Source of the DNA: a virus
Taxonomy: Duplodnaviria; Heunggongvirae; Uroviricota; Caudoviricetes
Strand: one strand, 5' to 3'
IMG/VR virus record: IMGVR_UViG_3300049203_000077
Location: 64,001-104,734 of that record
Length of the DNA stretch: 40,734 nucleotides
Part shown: positions 5,701-37,937 of the stretch, in pieces
Numbering within the stretch: the first letter of the stretch is position 1
Layout: every line of letters begins with the position of its first letter
Made by a program: the position numbers and the translations under genes
Notes under the pieces: model-generated
Told to the model about the DNA's origin: nothing
Seen by the model: the letters and a program-made list of their open reading frames with translations, nothing else
The model's database searches: none

Positions 5701-8700
5701 GTTAAAGTAGAGGATTATGAAAAAATTAGAACTCAGTCAAAAAGGCACTACTACCTTCACAAAGACACCATAAAGGCTGGTAGAGAGTTCCTAGAAGAAT
5801 ATAACAAAAGACCTTCTACAATATCTAATTTAGTATCTGAGATTGAGAAGAAAAGGAAGGACGCGTTACAAGGTATTAAATTATCGGATGTACAGGTTGG
5901 AGATAAACTACAAGTTTCTTCAAACTTGTCCGGAGGATTTAAAAATAAAGATGTTGTAGTTACTAGAAGATCAAAACTGGGAGTTCAATTTGATAACGAA
6001 AACGTATGGTATAACTTTAAAAATTCTACACTTTCTATAGTTAATTTTAAAAACTATAGTCAAGAAGAAAGAATTAACGCTAAATATGATGCAGAGTTAG
6101 CTGTACTAAGAGGGGGAGCTTCTCAAGAAAGCAATGAAAATCAAGGTGGTGCGCCTCCTATCACTCCTAATGATCCACCTCCTACTACAGGAACAGGAGG
6201 ACTTAGGACTGATGACTTCATGGCAAAAGTATTTGTTCCGGGAGATTTAAAACTCTCGTTTAACAATGCTATATTCTCAGGAACTAGGGATCAAGTTAAG
6301 ACTGGAATGAGTATTCGTGTAAGACCACTGGAGCCTCAATTCCAGCAGCAATTTGATCAACAATCTGCTACAAGATCATATACACAAATGACTGGATTTC
6401 CAGGAGTATATGTGTCTAAAGCACCTGTTGATATTTCTGTTTCACACTTTAATGGTATCGAAGTGAATGAAATAGGTAAAGTAGCCTATCCAAAGAGACT
6501 TTTGTTTAGAGTAGGTAATGACTTTGTTAACATTGACAGGCTTACTCCTGAGCAATATCAACATTTCACTGGCAGGCCAGCAGCTCAACATGCTGCTGAT
6601 GTAGAAGAATATAACAAACAAGTAGCTTTTACAAACTACTTAGCTTTAAGATTTAGAAATAACAATCTACAAGAAATTACTCTCACTCCACAAGAGATTA
6701 ATGAGCTTCTTGATATTGTTATTACTTATGGAGAGTTGGACCTTATACCAGTTGGCCAAGAAAGACCATTATATAATCAGCTAAGACGCAACACTGTATC
6801 TCTTCCTATCTCAACAGGGGGAACATTAAATACAATGGTGATACTGTCTGCTCCTAAACGTCAGATGGATGAAGATGGTGTAATGGTTCGTGAAAGAATA
6901 GGAAGTATCAATCCTATCTATGGACAAAATTTCTATGATAATTCAAGTGCAGATGATAGTGTTATTTTAGATTTTATCAGTAATTCGGCTGACAGTATTA
7001 TTAAAGTGAATTCTCGTTACATAGGACTAGTATCTAAACCAGATGGTAGTTTTTCTCTTATTGCTCTACGTCCAGCAGAAATGGACACTGCTGCTAAAAC
7101 AAGTTTACTCCAAACTCTTATAGATAGATCAACAGAGTCTCTTAGGACAAACTTTGTTCCTTCTACAAAGGAGGAGTCTCCTAAGAATGTATTATTAATA
7201 GGTAATGATGAGGTTTACTATAAACTTCCAAGTGACGCTGCTAAAGACTATAATAAAGATTTCAATGACAATATAAATAATCAAGTGTTTATTTCAGATC
7301 CTAATGGTAAAGTGTGGTTTGAAATTACACTTAGTCCAATTGGAGCTCTTCGCTTGGATATTCATGAACCTAATTCTGGATATAGAAATCGTCTTATTGT
7401 TGCTCCTCAAAAGGTTGGAAAACTTGATTCTTTCCAAGCAATGATTGATGCATTTAATAATGAATTAGTAAAGAAAGAAAAAGATGATGAAACTCTCAGA
7501 GGACTAGCAATAAGACTAAACAGTAGTAACTTTAGGCAAAACATAGCTGATGATAGTAATATTCCTAATGCTGAAGCATTGGCTTCTCAACTAACTGCTG
7601 CTACATCTACAGAGGTATTTAAGAACGGAACAATGAAACTTGTTCCTGATACTGGAAATGTAGCATCAGCTTATAAAAATGCAAGAGGTAGCACACAACA
7701 GGCTACTCCTGAACAAACAGCTCAAGAACAGCCTCCTGTTGCTCCTGAAACTCCAGCTACTCCAGCAATGCCTCAAGGGCTTACTTCTCTTACAGAGCAA
7801 CAACCTCAGGAGTATGGTACACTAGAAGATGTGTTTGGTCCCCAGATTCCTACTGGAATGTTTCAAGGTATGACAGGAGTTCCTGTAGATGAATCAGGAA
7901 ATCCTATTGCACCTATAGAGACTGCTCCTCAAAATCAAGAGGAAGCACAAGGAATTGTTTATACATCTGTTAAGGAAGCATTAAATGCTAATGACATAGA
8001 CTATAGAACAGTAGAAGGTGAAACTCAGTTCTTTAATATTAGTACAGGCCAATTACTTGATCTTCCTGGAGTAGCTCCAAAGGACTTAGCTGATTCTATG
8101 GGACTTACTATTGCACCTCAACAAAGACCTCAGAGAGGTACAGGATTTGACTTTATGCGTTCTGAGCAAAATCTATCTACATTAAACAACATGGTAGATT
8201 TTGAGAATGCTAGAGTGTACATCAATTCTATTCTTCCCTCATTTATTAGTGTGGAGGACATGGATGCTGTAATGAATAAGATTAGAGAGCAAGGAATTGA
8301 AAATCCTGAGAAAAATGTTTGGGGAGCTTTCAAGGATGGGATCATCTATCTTAATAAGCAAGCTCCATCAGCAGGACAAGAGTATCATGAAGCATTCCAT
8401 GCTGTATTTAATTCATTCATTCCTCAAGAAGAACAAAAGTCTCTTCTTAACTATGCTAATGATGAGCTTTACAAAAAGCTTAAGAAAGAAGGAAAATCTA
8501 TTAGAGAATATATTAATGAACAGCGTAAACAAGGAGTATGGACAAATATTTCTGATACCCATGCAGCTAATAAAGCAGCTGAAGAATGGATGGCAGAAAA
8601 GTTTCGCTCATGGAAAAATAAAAAAAAGAACGCAGGTATTCTTCAAAGACTATTTGATTTAATTGATAGATTTTTTAGATGGATAACTAGAAATCAAAAT

Positions 8701-31474: not shown

Positions 31475-31676
31475 TATCTCCCTCCTCGTAAATTGCGTCT
31501 GTTTTCTCAAATAAGTTAAAGAAATCCTCTTTTAATCTCACCCAAATGTCTCCATCTGGGTTATCGTAGAGAGTAGCGTAGATGATACATGGAATCCATG
31601 TACCACCTACTTTTATGCTAGTCTCTTCAACAATATAGTAGGGTTTTTCCTTATAGATGTAAACGTTACTTCGCAA
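31464..31676 (-). CDS. DUF1653-like small protein (70 aa)
   Basis: PYYIV...CIIYATLY...DIWVRLKEDFF pattern. Confidence 0.6.
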   Translation of the reverse strand: MRSNVYIYKEKPYYIVEETSIKVGGTWIPCIIYATLYDNPDGDIWVRLKEDFFNLFEKTDAIYEEGDNVY

Positions 31677-32058
31677 GTTTATTAGCTTCTTTTGGAGTTA
31701 AAGGATAGTTTCCAACATGACTATTTGGGAACTTTTTTAGTTCCCTTTCTTTTATCCGCTTCTTGAGTTCCTCTGTTCTATCGTATTCAGCGGCAATTAA
31801 AGCTCCGGCAACAGCGAGCCTTTCCTGATAAGACTTCTCTATCATCTTCCTGCAGTGAGCTATTCCCCAAGAGTCAGGAAAATCATGAAGAACAGGACGT
31901 TCTTTTAATAAAGCTCTAGCAGCTTGAACAAGTTCTCCATTTGGATTATAGAGAATGTCGTCGTTGACAGTAAGTTTATGTTTATGAATCTGGTCGTTTC
32001 GCTCATTTATAATAGCGACAATACCGTGTAAATTATTATTTACGATTGTATCGTTCAT
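31666..32058 (-). CDS. Conserved phage protein of unknown function (ER..Q...DD...GEL..AA...L..AGALIAAE.DR family, 130 aa)
   Basis: ERNDQIHKH...DD...NGELVQAA...ERLAVAGALIAAEYDR motif, recalled from phage hypothetical proteins. Confidence 0.65.
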   Translation of the reverse strand: MNDTIVNNNLHGIVAIINERNDQIHKHKLTVNDDILYNPNGELVQAARALLKERPVLHDFPDSWGIAHCRKMIEKSYQERLAVAGALIAAEYDRTEELKKRIKERELKKFPNSHVGNYPLTPKEANKLAK

Positions 32059-33407: not shown

Positions 33408-33435
33408 AAAAAAGTCCCCACGTTTCCGCAGGGAC
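33408..33435 (-). terminator. Intrinsic terminator with GAAA tetraloop
   Basis: Minus strand reads GTCCCTGCG-GAAA-CGTGGGGAC-TTTTTT. Confidence 0.8.
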
Positions 33436-33464
33436 CAAAACCTCTAAAAATGAAAAAAAATCAA

Positions 33465-33680: not shown

Positions 33681-33711
33681 CAAAGGTAAATAGTATTTAA
33701 CTATCTACCAA
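33681..33711 (-). promoter_or_regulatory. Bacteroidota promoter TTG-N20-TACCTTTG
   Basis: CAAAGGTA at 33681-33688 and CAA at 33709-33711 on the + strand. Confidence 0.65.
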
Positions 33712-33718
33712 ACATTTC

Positions 33719-33955
33719 TTAGAATAAGTTGGAAATAAATTTTAATCTTTCATAATGAGCTTCTTCTGCTGTAGCGAAATGACCTATGTGAATTGTGGTA
33801 AGTTTTCCTGATACGGTCTTTGCAGATACTTGTGCTGAAAATTTATTTACAGAAGCAGGGTTACTTATCTCGGATACACCCTTATATCCAGTGTTAGTAA
33901 AAGGTTTATATCTTAGCCCCTTTGGTCTATTTCTTTTCTTTTTTACTTCAGTCAT
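33719..33955 (-). CDS. Stand-alone AP2-domain DNA-binding protein (78 aa)
   Basis: NTGYKGVS...KFSAQV...IHIGHFATAEEAH; no HNH domain attached. Confidence 0.8.
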   Translation of the reverse strand: MTEVKKKRNRPKGLRYKPFTNTGYKGVSEISNPASVNKFSAQVSAKTVSGKLTTIHIGHFATAEEAHYERLKFISNLF

Positions 33956-34392
33956 TAAGCTTTTTCTTTGTTAGTACTACCATATCCTCCTTTACCACGA
34001 ATAGTGTCAGATAGATTCTGAGTTACTTTAAATGTAGCTTGTTCTACTTTAGCAATAACTCCTTGAGCAATTCGATCGCCAGTGTTTATTGTGAATGTGC
34101 TATTACCATGATTAATCAAGATAATACCAATTTCTCCACGATAATCTGAGTCAATTGTTCCGGGAGAGTTAAGAACAGTAACACCATTCTTAAGAGCAAG
34201 GCCACTACGAGGACGTACTTGCATTTCATACCCTTTAGGGATTTCAAAGGCAAGTCCTGTACCTACAAGTACTCTTTCTCTTGGACCAATCATATATGTT
34301 CCAGACGAATGCAAATCAAATCCTGCTGCTCCTTCTGTCTGGTATTCAGGAACAGTAGCGGTACTAATCAATTCTTTTACTAAAATCTCCAT
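33955..34392 (-). CDS. dut: dUTPase, trimeric type (145 aa)
   Basis: AAGFDL, RPRSGLA, GTIDSDYRGEI, GDRIAQ, RGKGGYGST motifs. Confidence 0.97.
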   Translation of the reverse strand: MEILVKELISTATVPEYQTEGAAGFDLHSSGTYMIGPRERVLVGTGLAFEIPKGYEMQVRPRSGLALKNGVTVLNSPGTIDSDYRGEIGIILINHGNSTFTINTGDRIAQGVIAKVEQATFKVTQNLSDTIRGKGGYGSTNKEKA

Positions 34393-34724
34393 TAAAGTCC
34401 TCCTTTGTATTTTCCTTCGTTGTAGTATTTTATTAACTTAGAAATCTTGGTGTCAAGACGCTCACCAATCGGGTCTTCTTCTACTTCAAGCTGTTTTATA
34501 ACAACTCCAAGTCGTAGAAAAACATCTCCTACTTCATCCACAATTGCTTGTTTAGAAGGAGCTTTTTCTGGTTTCTTGTTGATGTACTTTAATAGAACTT
34601 CCTGAAGTTCAGAGAGTTCTTCACAGAGTTTTGTAATATTAAACTTAGGGTCGTTTTCATTAAGAAGAACTTCCATTAATTCTTCTTCTGTCTCAATCTT
34701 GTTAATTACTGCTGTTTCGCTCAT
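34392..34724 (-). CDS. MazG-like nucleotide pyrophosphohydrolase (110 aa)
   Basis: KLCEELSEL...IVDEVGDV acidic EExxE...E..D motif. Confidence 0.75.
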   Translation of the reverse strand: MSETAVINKIETEEELMEVLLNENDPKFNITKLCEELSELQEVLLKYINKKPEKAPSKQAIVDEVGDVFLRLGVVIKQLEVEEDPIGERLDTKISKLIKYYNEGKYKGGL

Positions 34725-34733
34725 TGTGTAGTA

Positions 34734-34850
34734 TTAATTAAATAAATTTTGAAATGTATTAGCTGCTGCCCAAAGAAGAGCAGCTATAAATACACCTATA
34801 GCTGCTCCCCAGACAATGTCGCCTATTTTTTGTTTTTGTTCTTTTGTCAT
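34734..34850 (-). CDS. 38-aa single-TM micropeptide, not in the ORF track (MTKEQKQKIGDIVWGAAIGVFIAALLWAAANTFQNLFN)
   Basis: Translated by hand; TAATG overlap with the Tad1-like stop codon; fills the gap exactly. Confidence 0.6.
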   Translation of the reverse strand: MTKEQKQKIGDIVWGAAIGVFIAALLWAAANTFQNLFN

Positions 34851-35161
34851 TATGCAAGATGTTTACCTTCTACTCCCCGCTGAACTCTGTTTTTTGTTCT
34901 CTCGTTTAACCAAATAAGGGCTTGTTGAAGATTACTAATAGCATACTCGTTTTCCTTACAAGGAAACTTCCCTTGTAAATATTCCATTCTGTTAATGAGA
35001 ACTTCTAGCACATCTTCGTTAGTTGTACCGTCTGCTACTGTTACTAAGTATTGATCAGAACCAACTAATTCTTTTTGAATGAATTGTAATGTTTGACCTT
35101 CTTTTTCTTTATTCTCGAAATTATCGAGTTCGTATTTGTGTCCTTCTACTTTTATTTTCAT
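34850..35161 (-). CDS. tad1: Tad1-like (Thoeris anti-defence 1) signal-sponge protein (103 aa)
   Basis: GTTNEDVLEVLINRM...FPCKENEYAISNLQQALIWLNERTKNRVQRGVEG matches the Tad1 C-terminal pattern as I recall it. Confidence 0.75.
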   Translation of the reverse strand: MKIKVEGHKYELDNFENKEKEGQTLQFIQKELVGSDQYLVTVADGTTNEDVLEVLINRMEYLQGKFPCKENEYAISNLQQALIWLNERTKNRVQRGVEGKHLA

Positions 35162-35176
35162 TTGTTGTATATTTAA

Positions 35177-37819
35177 TTATCCACATTTTGAGCTGCCACA
35201 TTCTAAACATGTTCCACAGCCTTCTTCAAATTTTACATTGGATGAGCCACATTCAGAACATTTATAACGTTCTAAAAGCTCTTTTTCAGGAATGTATTTC
35301 TTTAAGGTACGAGCTAAGGCTTTACCAAAGCTTACTACCTCTAAGGGACATTTATCAATTTGTTCAATAATGAACTTAGGGTTGACACCATGACGCATCA
35401 TTCCCGATACTAGGCGTGTAAGAACCTGTTCGTCAACATGTGCGTCGCGATTTTGTATATTTTCAATTGTCCGTCCTTTATCGTAAGTAAAGCTGTAGTG
35501 TCCTTTCTTGACTTTAGTGACAATACCCTTCCCATTTGTTGGTTTTTCGTCCTCTTCTTCGGAGCTAAAGGCAAATACCTCATACGGTTTATTATTTAAA
35601 AGTCCAACAATTACAGCATAAGAGTTACCCTTCACTCTAATAGAGTGACATTCAGCCTCTAATGACTTAGGACGTTTTGGAGCATCGTGATAAACCAAAT
35701 CATTCCCGTCACTAGACTTGCTTGTAACAAGCACGCCACTACGAGAACCATCACGATATACAGTAACTCCTTTAAGACCAGCTTTCCACGCTTTAAAGTA
35801 TATGTCAGATACTGTTTGTTTTGATACATCTTTTGGTAAATTTAAGGTTGAACTAATAGCATTTGTGGTGTATTTCTGGATAATTGATTGAATTTCAATA
35901 CGCTTCTCCCATGAAATATCATTTGCACAACTTCCATAGTATGGAGAGTTTTCAAATAAGTACTGCATCTCCTCTTTAGTCATATTTTCAATTTCCTTAT
36001 CCTCGAAAAGATTCATGTGTTGTCTATTGATATCGTACCATTCTTTAAATCCACCCATTACTACAGGATAAGTCATCCAACAATCCCCGTTCTGATCTTT
36101 GAAGTCAACACGAGCATCTTTATCAGAAGGATTCACTTTTTTATTTCTAAAGTGGTAAGGCAAGAAGCAAGGCTCAAGTCCCCCAGTAGTGTTAGAATAC
36201 TTAATGAGGAGAGCTACAATACTTACAGTACCAGTAGGTGCTACGGTAGACCAACTTACGTTACGTCTTCCGTAGACAAACATTCTCTCTACCTGTTCAG
36301 GAAACTCTTTACAAAGCATCTGATAGAAAGAGTTCAGTCCTACAATCTGTCTTTTCTCATTGAGGAAGCCTTCACCAAGCTCTAAATCTCTATCCCATCC
36401 AGTAAATGTTCCACGTAGTATAGCTAGGTCAATAGTACAATCTAGCTCTGCTCGCATTTTAGCCTTCATTACTTCTTCAGTAACCTTGAGAGCTTCATCA
36501 GAATCATATTTCAATCCTAATGCTGCCAACATGTCACCAAGAGCAGTGAATCCACAACCAGTCCGCCTAGAAGCAGAAGCCGTTTCTTTTACTTTCTCCC
36601 AAAGATTAAGCTCTGTGGCTTTAATATCATCGGGTTCTGGATCAGCCTTAATTTTAGCGATAATCTTGTCTACATACTCGATTTCGAGGTCAACAATATC
36701 ATCTGCTAAACGTTGTTGAATATAGAATACTTCGTATACTTTTTCATAGTCAATACTCGCGTTCCTCGTAAACGGATTACGAACAAAGCTAAATAGATTG
36801 ACCGCAAGCAATCTACAGGCGTCATAAGCTTGTAACCATTGCTCACCGCATGGATTGGAAGCAATAGCTCTAAATACTTCATAGACACCTTCTGGAGAAT
36901 AATCTTGTACTCGATCCATGAAAGCTACGCCGGGTTCAGCATTCTCCCATGCCATCTCTACGATAAGGTCAAAGACTTCACGAGCTTTCACTTTCATTGC
37001 TGCAATTTCGCCTTTACCTTCTACCTTTATATTTACGATAGTATTATAAGCAGCACCTTCAAGCTCATCAATACTTACACTAGCATCAATAGGAAAACGA
37101 CATACAAAATCGCTATCCTTTTCTACAGCATTCATAAATTCATCCACTATCTGAACACTTACATTGGCTCCTGTTACCTGTGTGCGGTCTTTCTTCTTGA
37201 TAATGAACTGTCTAACATCAGGGTGTAGAATGCTCATTAGAAGCATTAAAGCTCCTCGTCTTCCATTTTGAGCAACTTCGCGTGTAGTGTTCGAAAACCT
37301 AGACATAAAGCTATGTGCGCCAGTAGAAGTACCGGCAGCGTTAAGCACAACAGCATCATCATATCGAAGTTTGTTAAGAGTTGTGCCGACTCCTCCTCTA
37401 CGCTTTTCGAGTTGGGCGATTTCTTGGTCTGCTTTGAATATTCCTCCATAAGAATCAAGTGGTTCTGGTACAACAAAACAATTAGATAGAGACTGTAACT
37501 TATAATGGTTACCAAGTCCAGACATAATAGACCCCTGAGGTATTATCCATTTGAACTTGTGTAGGTACTCCATTATCTCAGCCGCACTAAGTGCTCTAAA
37601 ATGGTCTTTACCAAATGTAGATAGAGCTCCATAATTTAATGGTCTGCCATCCATATACCTCTCTTCTGCTCTAGCTAATTCTCTTGCCATGCGAACATGC
37701 ATGTCGTAAGGTGTTGTTTCTACAACCTCTTTTTTCTCATTCTTTAGTGCATACTTACCATACCATACTGATGCTGAAAGTTCGTCGCCGTTAAAATAGT
37801 CTAATAGTTCTTTCGTCAT
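35177..37819 (-). CDS. nrdJ: Class II (adenosylcobalamin-dependent) ribonucleotide reductase (880 aa)
   Basis: SLSNCFV, ASNPCGEQ, TVAPTGTVS; C-terminal TSCPD-like domain and CxxC...EEGCxxCxxCGxSKCG tail; no NrdB gene in the window. Confidence 0.92.
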   Translation of the reverse strand: MTKELLDYFNGDELSASVWYGKYALKNEKKEVVETTPYDMHVRMARELARAEERYMDGRPLNYGALSTFGKDHFRALSAAEIMEYLHKFKWIIPQGSIMSGLGNHYKLQSLSNCFVVPEPLDSYGGIFKADQEIAQLEKRRGGVGTTLNKLRYDDAVVLNAAGTSTGAHSFMSRFSNTTREVAQNGRRGALMLLMSILHPDVRQFIIKKKDRTQVTGANVSVQIVDEFMNAVEKDSDFVCRFPIDASVSIDELEGAAYNTIVNIKVEGKGEIAAMKVKAREVFDLIVEMAWENAEPGVAFMDRVQDYSPEGVYEVFRAIASNPCGEQWLQAYDACRLLAVNLFSFVRNPFTRNASIDYEKVYEVFYIQQRLADDIVDLEIEYVDKIIAKIKADPEPDDIKATELNLWEKVKETASASRRTGCGFTALGDMLAALGLKYDSDEALKVTEEVMKAKMRAELDCTIDLAILRGTFTGWDRDLELGEGFLNEKRQIVGLNSFYQMLCKEFPEQVERMFVYGRRNVSWSTVAPTGTVSIVALLIKYSNTTGGLEPCFLPYHFRNKKVNPSDKDARVDFKDQNGDCWMTYPVVMGGFKEWYDINRQHMNLFEDKEIENMTKEEMQYLFENSPYYGSCANDISWEKRIEIQSIIQKYTTNAISSTLNLPKDVSKQTVSDIYFKAWKAGLKGVTVYRDGSRSGVLVTSKSSDGNDLVYHDAPKRPKSLEAECHSIRVKGNSYAVIVGLLNNKPYEVFAFSSEEEDEKPTNGKGIVTKVKKGHYSFTYDKGRTIENIQNRDAHVDEQVLTRLVSGMMRHGVNPKFIIEQIDKCPLEVVSFGKALARTLKKYIPEKELLERYKCSECGSSNVKFEEGCGTCLECGSSKCG

Positions 37820-37843
37820 TAATTATATAAAAAATTTAGCTTG

Positions 37844-37851
37844 CAAAAATA
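37844..37851 (-). promoter_or_regulatory. TATTTTTG -7 promoter box upstream of nrdJ
   Basis: Reverse complement of CAAAAATA in the divergent intergenic region. Confidence 0.5.
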
Positions 37852-37890
37852 ATCAAATCAATTGAGAGAAAAAAATTTATTAAAAATATT

Positions 37891-37920
37891 TTGTAATATC
37901 GTTTATTCATCTTACCTTTG
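37891..37920 (+). promoter_or_regulatory. Consensus Bacteroidota promoter TTG-N19-TACCTTTG driving the + strand island
   Basis: TTG at 37891-37893, TACCTTTG at 37913-37920. Confidence 0.75.
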
Positions 37921-37937
37921 TGTAACATAAGTTGATT

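Follow-up and report, generated by a model that had tools for sequence, protein, structure and literature searches.

The locus examined here raises two questions, namely whether a small gene lying directly behind a ribonucleotide reductase gene in a phage of an uncultured lineage encodes a sponge for immune signals, and which signals such a protein would take up. The window, by which we mean the whole stretch of DNA analysed, forms the final 40.7 kb of an IMG/VR record of 104,734 bp (CheckV completeness 77%) and has a GC content of 35.7%. A preliminary description of this DNA had placed a Tad1-like ORF at positions 34850-35161, and the ORF list of the window contained exactly this frame on the minus strand, with an ATG start, a length of 103 aa and a TAA stop; both peptides quoted in that description were present in the translation. 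Tad1 (Thoeris anti-defence 1) proteins are small, oligomeric phage proteins that sequester signalling nucleotides and so keep the defence effector from being activated. The gene was recorded as follows:

34850-35161, minus strand: tad1-like gene, assigned from the ORF, PDB sequence matches, identity to SBSphiJ7 Tad1, an AlphaFold2 (AF2) model, and Foldseek and VIA-align comparisons

The N-terminus of the translation, MKIKVEGHKYEL, aligned with the N-termini of 34 relatives, which supports the ATG start codon, and 28 columns of the family alignment were invariant. Homologs were found far above chance expectation: the protein collection gave 189 at E<=1e-3 (2e-37 for the best match other than the protein itself), IMG/VR 235 relatives and GTDB genomes 78. 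Those in the protein collection were mostly of 101-110 aa and 55-68% identical to the window protein, and a protein identical to it was encoded on nine contigs.

A phmmer search against all PDB chains matched aa 44-100 to CmTad1 (8KBB, E 1.7e-9) and CbTad1 (7UAV, E 7.7e-8). When 50,697 phage records were searched by tblastn, the best match was the annotated Tad1 of Bacillus phage SBSphiJ7 (51.7% identity, E 1e-13), and pairwise BLASTP against this protein gave 52% identity over 60 aa (E 8e-22). SBSphiJ7 Tad1 is the founding member of the family (142 aa), and its residues 81-140, comprising loop, hairpin and tail, are 52% identical to window aa 43-101, with SBS N110, R127 and R131 corresponding to window N71, R88 and R92; it differs in having 39 more residues in its N-terminal beta domain, where there is no significant sequence similarity, and in carrying F100 where the window protein has Leu62. 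A profile of the clade to which the window protein belongs aligned with the canonical Tad1 profile in hhalign at a probability of 99.9% (E 3.9e-32) across aa 42-103 only, and the Tad1 motifs RxxxLQ/FQ, F.C[KR]EN, WL..RT..R and VEG were all found. The sole Pfam match in hmmscan was PF24729.2, 'Acb2/Tad1, hairpin domain', which scored 14 bits where the cut-off is 27 bits (E 0.06), while the precomputed table of the protein collection assigns PF24729.3 to the window protein and to all 120 relatives listed. PHROG 2428, a family of unknown function, was matched at 3e-22 and no NCBIfam model matched the protein. Proteins of 200-230 aa with a C-terminal Tad1 hairpin were also observed, these being PDB 8Y6V chain I (gp184, 230 aa) and PHROGs 22140 and 23843, whose matches fall on aa 44-101 of the window protein, with E values from 1e-3 to 4e-6. 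For the N-terminal 42 aa, hhalign comparison of the profiles alone with the canonical Tad1 N-domain was not significant (E 0.11, probability 0.5%); sequence homology between the N-domains was dropped on this value, and only the structure model links them.

An AF2 monomer model built from 35 clade sequences had a mean pLDDT of 88. It contained a five-stranded N-terminal sheet spanning aa 2-43 (strands at 2-5, 9-11, 24-26, 29-33 and 38-43) and a C-terminal hairpin spanning aa 48-95 (helices at 48-65 and 69-95), followed by the tail VEGKHLA. According to the Tad1/Tad2 structure paper, the Tad1 architecture is an N-terminal antiparallel beta-sheet followed by two C-terminal helices. The top 14 matches of the model in a Foldseek search of the PDB were all Tad1 chains, each with a probability of 1.00, and VIA-align gave Z 9.2 to CbTad1 (94 residues, rmsd 3.9 A, model 1-103 to chain 16-124) and Z 8.9 to CmTad1 over model 1-103. 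Rows for proteins other than Tad1 covered the helical hairpin only, alignment at full length being confined to Tad1 chains. The preliminary description had proposed Foldseek against Tad1 as a check of its assignment; the structural match was found, and the assignment is upheld by the PDB, SBSphiJ7 and profile matches together with the full-length predicted fold. The model shows the short N-terminus as a Tad1 sheet that has been trimmed, not as another kind of domain; nothing in the window protein corresponds to the first ~15-21 residues of CbTad1. CbTad1 and CmTad1 (7UAV, 7UAW, 8SMD, 8KBB-8KBH) are thus the sole full-length structural matches (Z 8-9.2 over 91-94 residues, rmsd 3.3-4.3 A), although their overall identity to the window protein is 24-28% and several of their loops are missing from it. 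By solved structure these proteins are hexamers, the Tad1 homo-hexamer being a trimer of dimers, and they bind six gcADPR molecules or dinucleotides plus two cyclic trinucleotides, whereas the window protein is represented by a monomer model only. Sequence similarity and predicted fold together indicate that the product of 34850-35161 is a Tad1 homolog.

The hairpin is shared with the Acb2 (anti-CBASS 2) family, small sponges that consist of helices only and have no beta-sheet domain ahead of the hairpin. Membership of this family in place of Tad1 would fit the Pfam result, since the only match carries both names, and at 103 aa the window protein is nearer in length to Acb2 proteins (62-99 aa in the table of a 2025 screen) than to canonical Tad1 (124-142 aa). 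T4 Vs.4 and PaMx33 Acb2 are, moreover, small hexameric phage sponges with the PF24729 hairpin motif and bind trinucleotides in a similar way at a site of three-fold symmetry. They nevertheless differ in lacking the beta-sheet domain that precedes the hairpin in the window model, where the five-stranded sheet aligns with the Tad1 sheet and so departs from the helices-only architecture of Acb2. The Tad1 motifs listed above are present, all significant sequence and structure matches were Tad1 chains, and neither the PDB sequence matches at E<=10 nor the top Foldseek rows contained an Acb2 chain, a result that leaves room for distant kinship. We regard it as exceedingly improbable that the protein belongs to Acb2, and continue with the Tad1 assignment.

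Ligand contacts were taken from the founding preprint and the Tad1/Tad2 structure paper and mapped through the PDB phmmer and SBSphiJ7 BLASTP alignments. One numbering offset per chain recovered every published residue, so the map is considered reliable for the C-terminal half. At the gcADPR/dinucleotide pocket the correspondences were:

Cb R78, window R58: identical
Cb F87, window F66: identical
Cb N92, window N71: identical
Cb R109, window R88: identical
Cb R113, window R92: identical
Cb G120, window G99: identical
Cb F82 (SBS F100), window L62: changed
Cb N122, window H101: changed

Six of the eight mappable gcADPR contacts are therefore identical to those of CbTad1. They include the equivalents of Cb N92, R109 and R113, mutation of which abolishes binding in published Tad1 work, and at N71, R88 and R92 between 118 and 120 of the 120 clade members listed have the same residue. 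The adenine-stacking Phe (Cb F82, SBS F100) is absent, its place being taken by Leu62, as it is by Leu in 117 of the 120 clade members listed. In published Tad1 structure work Cb Q8 and L13 contact the guanine of 2',3'-cGAMP, and the CbTad1 segment bearing them is missing from the window protein. Three CbTad1 contacts in the beta2-beta3 and beta4-alpha1 loops (H29, G55 and R57) had no mapping with statistical support; a global profile alignment paired the invariant H8 with the canonical His and QFI.KE with the canonical FQ.GP (with the N-domains alone at E 0.11), making H8 a candidate equivalent of Cb H29, and gave no clear equivalent of Cb R57. The clade-wide change from Phe to Leu at the base-stacking position and the loss of the segment carrying Q8 and L13 would both suit a Tad1-fold protein of shifted specificity, one that kept the oligomeric sponge but took up a ligand other than gcADPR or cA3, or that had lost its trinucleotide site. 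Candidate ligands would be another ADPR-derived Thoeris signal, a cyclic dinucleotide prevalent in the host phylum (for example cGG) or an undescribed nucleotide. Against such a shift, the core gcADPR contacts N71, R88, R92, R58, F66 and G99 are intact. Leu62 itself is not disqualifying, because the Opitutaceae TAV5 homolog and homolog 62 of the 2025 screen, both reported active, carry the same Leu, which is thus compatible with Thoeris inhibition.

A different picture emerged at the cyclic-trinucleotide pocket, where according to the structure paper Cb R90 and T97 (Cm R88 and T95) bind the phosphates and Cm C87, A91 and M92 pack on the bases. Here the correspondences were:

Cm C87, window C68: kept
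Cm R88, window K69: conservative change (K in 67 and R in 51 clade members)
Cm T95, window S76: conservative change (Thr in 117 of the 120 clade members listed)
Cm A91, window E72: changed (Ala in 106 of the 120 clade members listed)
Cm M92, window Y73: changed (otherwise C, I, L, V or M in the clade)
Cm W103, window W84: interface residue, invariant

The states at E72, Y73 and S76 were found in no other of the 120 clade members listed, and the interface positions Q80, I83 and E87 stand against E, M and K in the clade consensus. The window protein departs from a clade consensus of at least 80% at seven positions, and four of these (72, 76, 80 and 87) are pocket or interface positions; six positions with at least 80% consensus line the trinucleotide pocket or hexamer interface, and the enrichment of four in seven has a hypergeometric P of 0.0013. 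It is consequently uncertain that the window copy binds cyclic trinucleotides in its three-fold pocket (C68, K69, E72, Y73, S76). It is conceivable, though on balance doubtful, that the three-fold pocket has been rebuilt in this copy (E72, Y73, S76; Q80, I83, E87) with the gcADPR pocket kept, such that it would bind a signal other than cA3 or cAAG, or that the site has been dropped. If so, this would be a natural case in which one pocket of a two-pocket sponge was retuned independently. The peculiar residues and their enrichment at pocket and interface positions likewise favour the broader proposal of shifted specificity, but K69 and S76 retain the charge and the hydroxyl that CmTad1 uses for phosphate contacts (R88, T95). 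Judged from the residues compared, the altered trinucleotide pocket is the only feature peculiar to the window copy, and its unusual residues make this copy a reasonable pick for a specificity or binding panel. For the different ligand range that the preliminary description had thought possible, these residues are the one support seen in the sequence.

The preliminary description was right that the N-terminus is shorter and divergent, but this does not make the protein a new variant. A short N-terminus is already known and, from the sequences compared, marks a large clade of ~104 aa proteins found mostly in Bacteroidota-associated DNA. Many short-clade proteins are included as Tad1 homologs in Table S1 of 10.1101/2025.08.24.671296, in which the DGTTNE motif occurs at least 47 times. 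The 'known homolog' row of that table is the protein of Opitutaceae sp. TAV5 (IMG gene 2510264739), letter-identical to an ORF of IMGVR_UViG_2510065049_000001 (L054), and over aa 1-100 the window protein shares 58% identity with it (E 1e-41). In the founding study, Leavitt et al. (10.1101/2022.05.03.490397) report inhibition of Thoeris by all of the ten homologs they tested, one of them from Opitutaceae sp. The TAV5 and window proteins resemble each other in length (104 and 103 aa), in the sequences MKI..EGH.YEL.NFE, QFI.K, the DGTTNE loop and KFPC[KR]EN, and at the gcADPR pocket, where both have Leu at the Cb F82 position and keep the N, R and R. They differ in the trinucleotide pocket, which has the canonical R, A, I and T in TAV5 against window K69, E72, Y73 and S76, as well as in host phylum (Verrucomicrobiota for TAV5) and phage background. 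As a 58%-identical relative has already been reported, as Opitutaceae sp., to block Thoeris, the window gene is of low significance as an ordinary Tad1; earlier work has described, and in part tested, this family with its mechanism and its short-form clade, and current understanding is unchanged by the gene.

Further short homologs from the 2025 screen bear on the ligand. Homolog 62 (IMGVR_UViG_3300021602_000019, 101 aa) was positive against type I Thoeris and 3'3'-cUA CBASS; it shares with the window protein the short form, Leu at the Phe position and the KFPCREN motif, and differs in N-terminal sequence, with a hairpin that is by eye about half identical. Homolog 51 (98 aa), which has a divergent trinucleotide site, inhibited none of seven systems. 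With one short homolog active and the other inactive, membership of the family is a good guide to the sponge mechanism and a poorer one to the exact ligand. Tad1 homologs differ in binding spectrum according to published work, and 19 of the 84 sponge homologs in the screen inhibited none of the tested systems, two observations that also speak for shifted specificity. Weighing these against the intact gcADPR contacts, we consider a general shift of specificity unlikely.

The gene probably encodes a short-form Tad1 family sponge that sequesters host immune signalling nucleotides, a reading based on homology, the predicted fold and analogy with tested relatives. Homology, fold and residue conservation were computed, whilst oligomeric state, ligands, timing of expression and host are inferred. 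By family precedent the window protein would assemble into a hexamer, and its most likely ligands would be the gcADPR of type I Thoeris (3'cADPR) and perhaps cyclic dinucleotides. These would be held in a dimer-interface pocket formed by R58, L62, F66, N71, R88 and R92 with the C-terminal tail around G99, and sequestration of gcADPR would block the Thoeris effector. The gene is probably transcribed with the nucleotide-metabolism operon, so that the sponge would be supplied while the phage replicates.

That operon comprises the following features around the tad1-like gene:

35177-37819, minus strand: nrdJ, class II (B12-dependent) ribonucleotide reductase-like, 880 aa (tblastn)
35162-35176, minus strand: 15-nt spacer from the nrdJ stop to the tad1 start, with no terminator-like site in the terminator scan
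34734-34850, minus strand: 38-aa ORF with one hydrophobic helix, unannotated (ORF list)
34392-34724, minus strand: MazG-like NTP pyrophosphohydrolase, 110 aa (PHROG 2245, E 1e-6; weak Pfam MazG match)
33955-34392, minus strand: dUTPase, 145 aa (Pfam PF00692, E 1.5e-33), its start overlapping the MazG stop
33685-33709, minus strand: terminator-like stem-loop, the first downstream of nrdJ on this strand (consensus scan, pattern match only)

The nrdJ gene is the first past a divergent intergenic region (37820-37931), and its product showed by tblastn 45% identity to the annotated vitamin B12-dependent ribonucleotide reductase (RNR) of crAss001 and PhiCrAssBcn phages and 59.5% identity to the RNR of Leptolyngbya phage Lbo-JY46. 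The ATG of the 38-aa ORF shares one base with the TAA of tad1 (TAATG), the MazG-like gene starts nine bases past this ORF, and a ThyX gene lies further downstream on the same strand as tad1. The preliminary description had stated that the gene is co-transcribed directly behind nrdJ. Its placement is as described, in a tight string of genes on one strand, and the scan found no terminator-like site on the minus strand between nrdJ and 33709; co-transcription with the nrdJ operon, as inferred from gene spacing, is plausible. Matches to sigma-70-type promoters were not in excess (18 found against 23 expected from shuffled sequence). The stem-loop at 33685-33709 is the likely end of the transcription unit. 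Terminator-like stem-loops at 33685-33709 and 33413-33436, both on the minus strand, follow ORFs of 78 and 63 aa, and these may split the long minus-strand gene string into units. Further along the same strand, a 130-aa ORF at 31666-32058 had a weak match (E 1.3e-4) to the C-terminal part of the 685-position phrog_6628, of unknown function, and no Pfam or NCBIfam match.

Such a position, 15 nt behind nrdJ and in a string with MazG-like, dUTPase and ThyX genes, could suggest that the protein is a nucleotide-metabolism accessory working with the adjacent reductase, for instance a small nucleotide-binding regulator, with no role in counter-defence. Gene neighbourhoods were surveyed within 5 kb for the best 80 of the 235 IMG/VR relatives. 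ThyX was present in 7 of these loci, and in 11 of them a class I RNR small subunit lay near on the same strand, both of which would accord with an accessory role, but an nrdJ-type reductase was found within 5 kb in none of the 80. The commonest same-strand neighbours were a 5'-3' exonuclease and a DnaB-like helicase with intein, in 14 loci each, followed by a RecA-like protein and the class I RNR small subunit, in 11 loci each. The gene thus lies elsewhere beside replication and nucleotide modules of a general kind; replication and recombination genes are what any early or middle accessory gene would be expected to have beside it. The phages closest to the window phage also have mazG or unrelated ORFs directly after nrdJ, and homologs of the protein have demonstrated sponge function. 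An accessory role in nucleotide metabolism is thus very unlikely, and sequestration of immune signals is retained as the probable function. Adjacency to nrdJ as a conserved functional linkage was rejected, with 0 of 80 loci and a variable slot. In 14 phage contigs carrying a short Tad1 (L015:5829-8267, plus strand, and 13 others) the gene just downstream encodes a DnaB-like helicase with a LAGLIDADG/Hom_end intein-type domain.

Variability of the slot was seen when the closest relatives of the window phage were identified through nrdJ. In L165 and L166 mazG follows nrdJ directly and the slot is empty. In the closest relative, L164 (75% nrdJ identity), it holds four small ORFs of 184, 155, 67 and 45 aa (6647-7983, plus strand), the first three of which had no Pfam match above threshold. 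Lbo-JY46, the nearest cultured relative, again carries four small ORFs that are different (L004:8582-9735, plus strand), without a Pfam match above threshold, and it had no Tad1 match. On its downstream side the variable slot is bounded by the MazG-like gene, which is conserved. Because the slot is empty or filled with other ORFs in relatives, the gap between nrdJ and mazG is regarded as a variable cargo slot and tad1 as an acquired accessory gene outside the reductase machinery, and the slot ORFs of L164 and Lbo-JY46 are candidate accessory or counter-defence genes. The presence of tad1 as cargo in a variable slot of an otherwise conserved nucleotide-metabolism operon should aid annotation of such phages, and the slot itself helps to locate further candidate counter-defence genes at the same site in relatives. 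A 45-aa look-alike of the 38-aa ORF, ending NTFQHLFDE, occurs in the L164 slot behind a different gene (L164:7643-7780, plus strand). This likeness, of a hydrophobic core and a C-terminal NTFQxLF, was recognized by eye and tblastn at E<=1e-3 reported none; if it is real, the peptide would belong to the operon and would not be a Tad1 partner.

With the window gene a further Tad1 gene is recorded, carried by a crAss-like phage of an uncultured lineage; the crAss-like label rests on similarity in portal, terminase and RNR. A literature search for crAss or Crassvirales with Tad1 found nothing relevant. Matches to PHROG head-and-packaging families were obtained for terminase, portal and head protein, and a giant ORF of 3782 aa, a putative virion RNA polymerase, had no PDB sequence match. 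By tblastn the portal (L085:2697-5381) is 47% identical to that of Lbo-JY46 and otherwise 25-32% identical to those of crAss-like and Bacteroidota phages, namely csAssE-Sib, Cellulophaga phi17:2 and phi4:1 and gut crAss-like phages. The nearest cultured relative by portal and RNR is therefore Lbo-JY46, a phage recorded on a cyanobacterium, whereas the other portal relatives are crAss-like phages of Bacteroidota, and phage family by itself may be an unsafe guide to the host of this lineage. The preliminary description had called it a Bacteroidota phage; this agrees with the genomic copies of the clade, which are mostly in Bacteroidota, but sits less easily with the cyanobacterial record. Full-length short-form copies in GTDB genomes occur mostly in Bacteroidota (Arcicella, Emticicia, Runella, Flavobacterium, Tenacibaculum, Chitinophaga and Cyclobacteriaceae), with a few in Verrucomicrobiota and other phyla, and a Bacteroidota host is likely for the window phage. 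Matches in GTDB to the hairpin only, which represent the canonical form, were mainly in Firmicutes.
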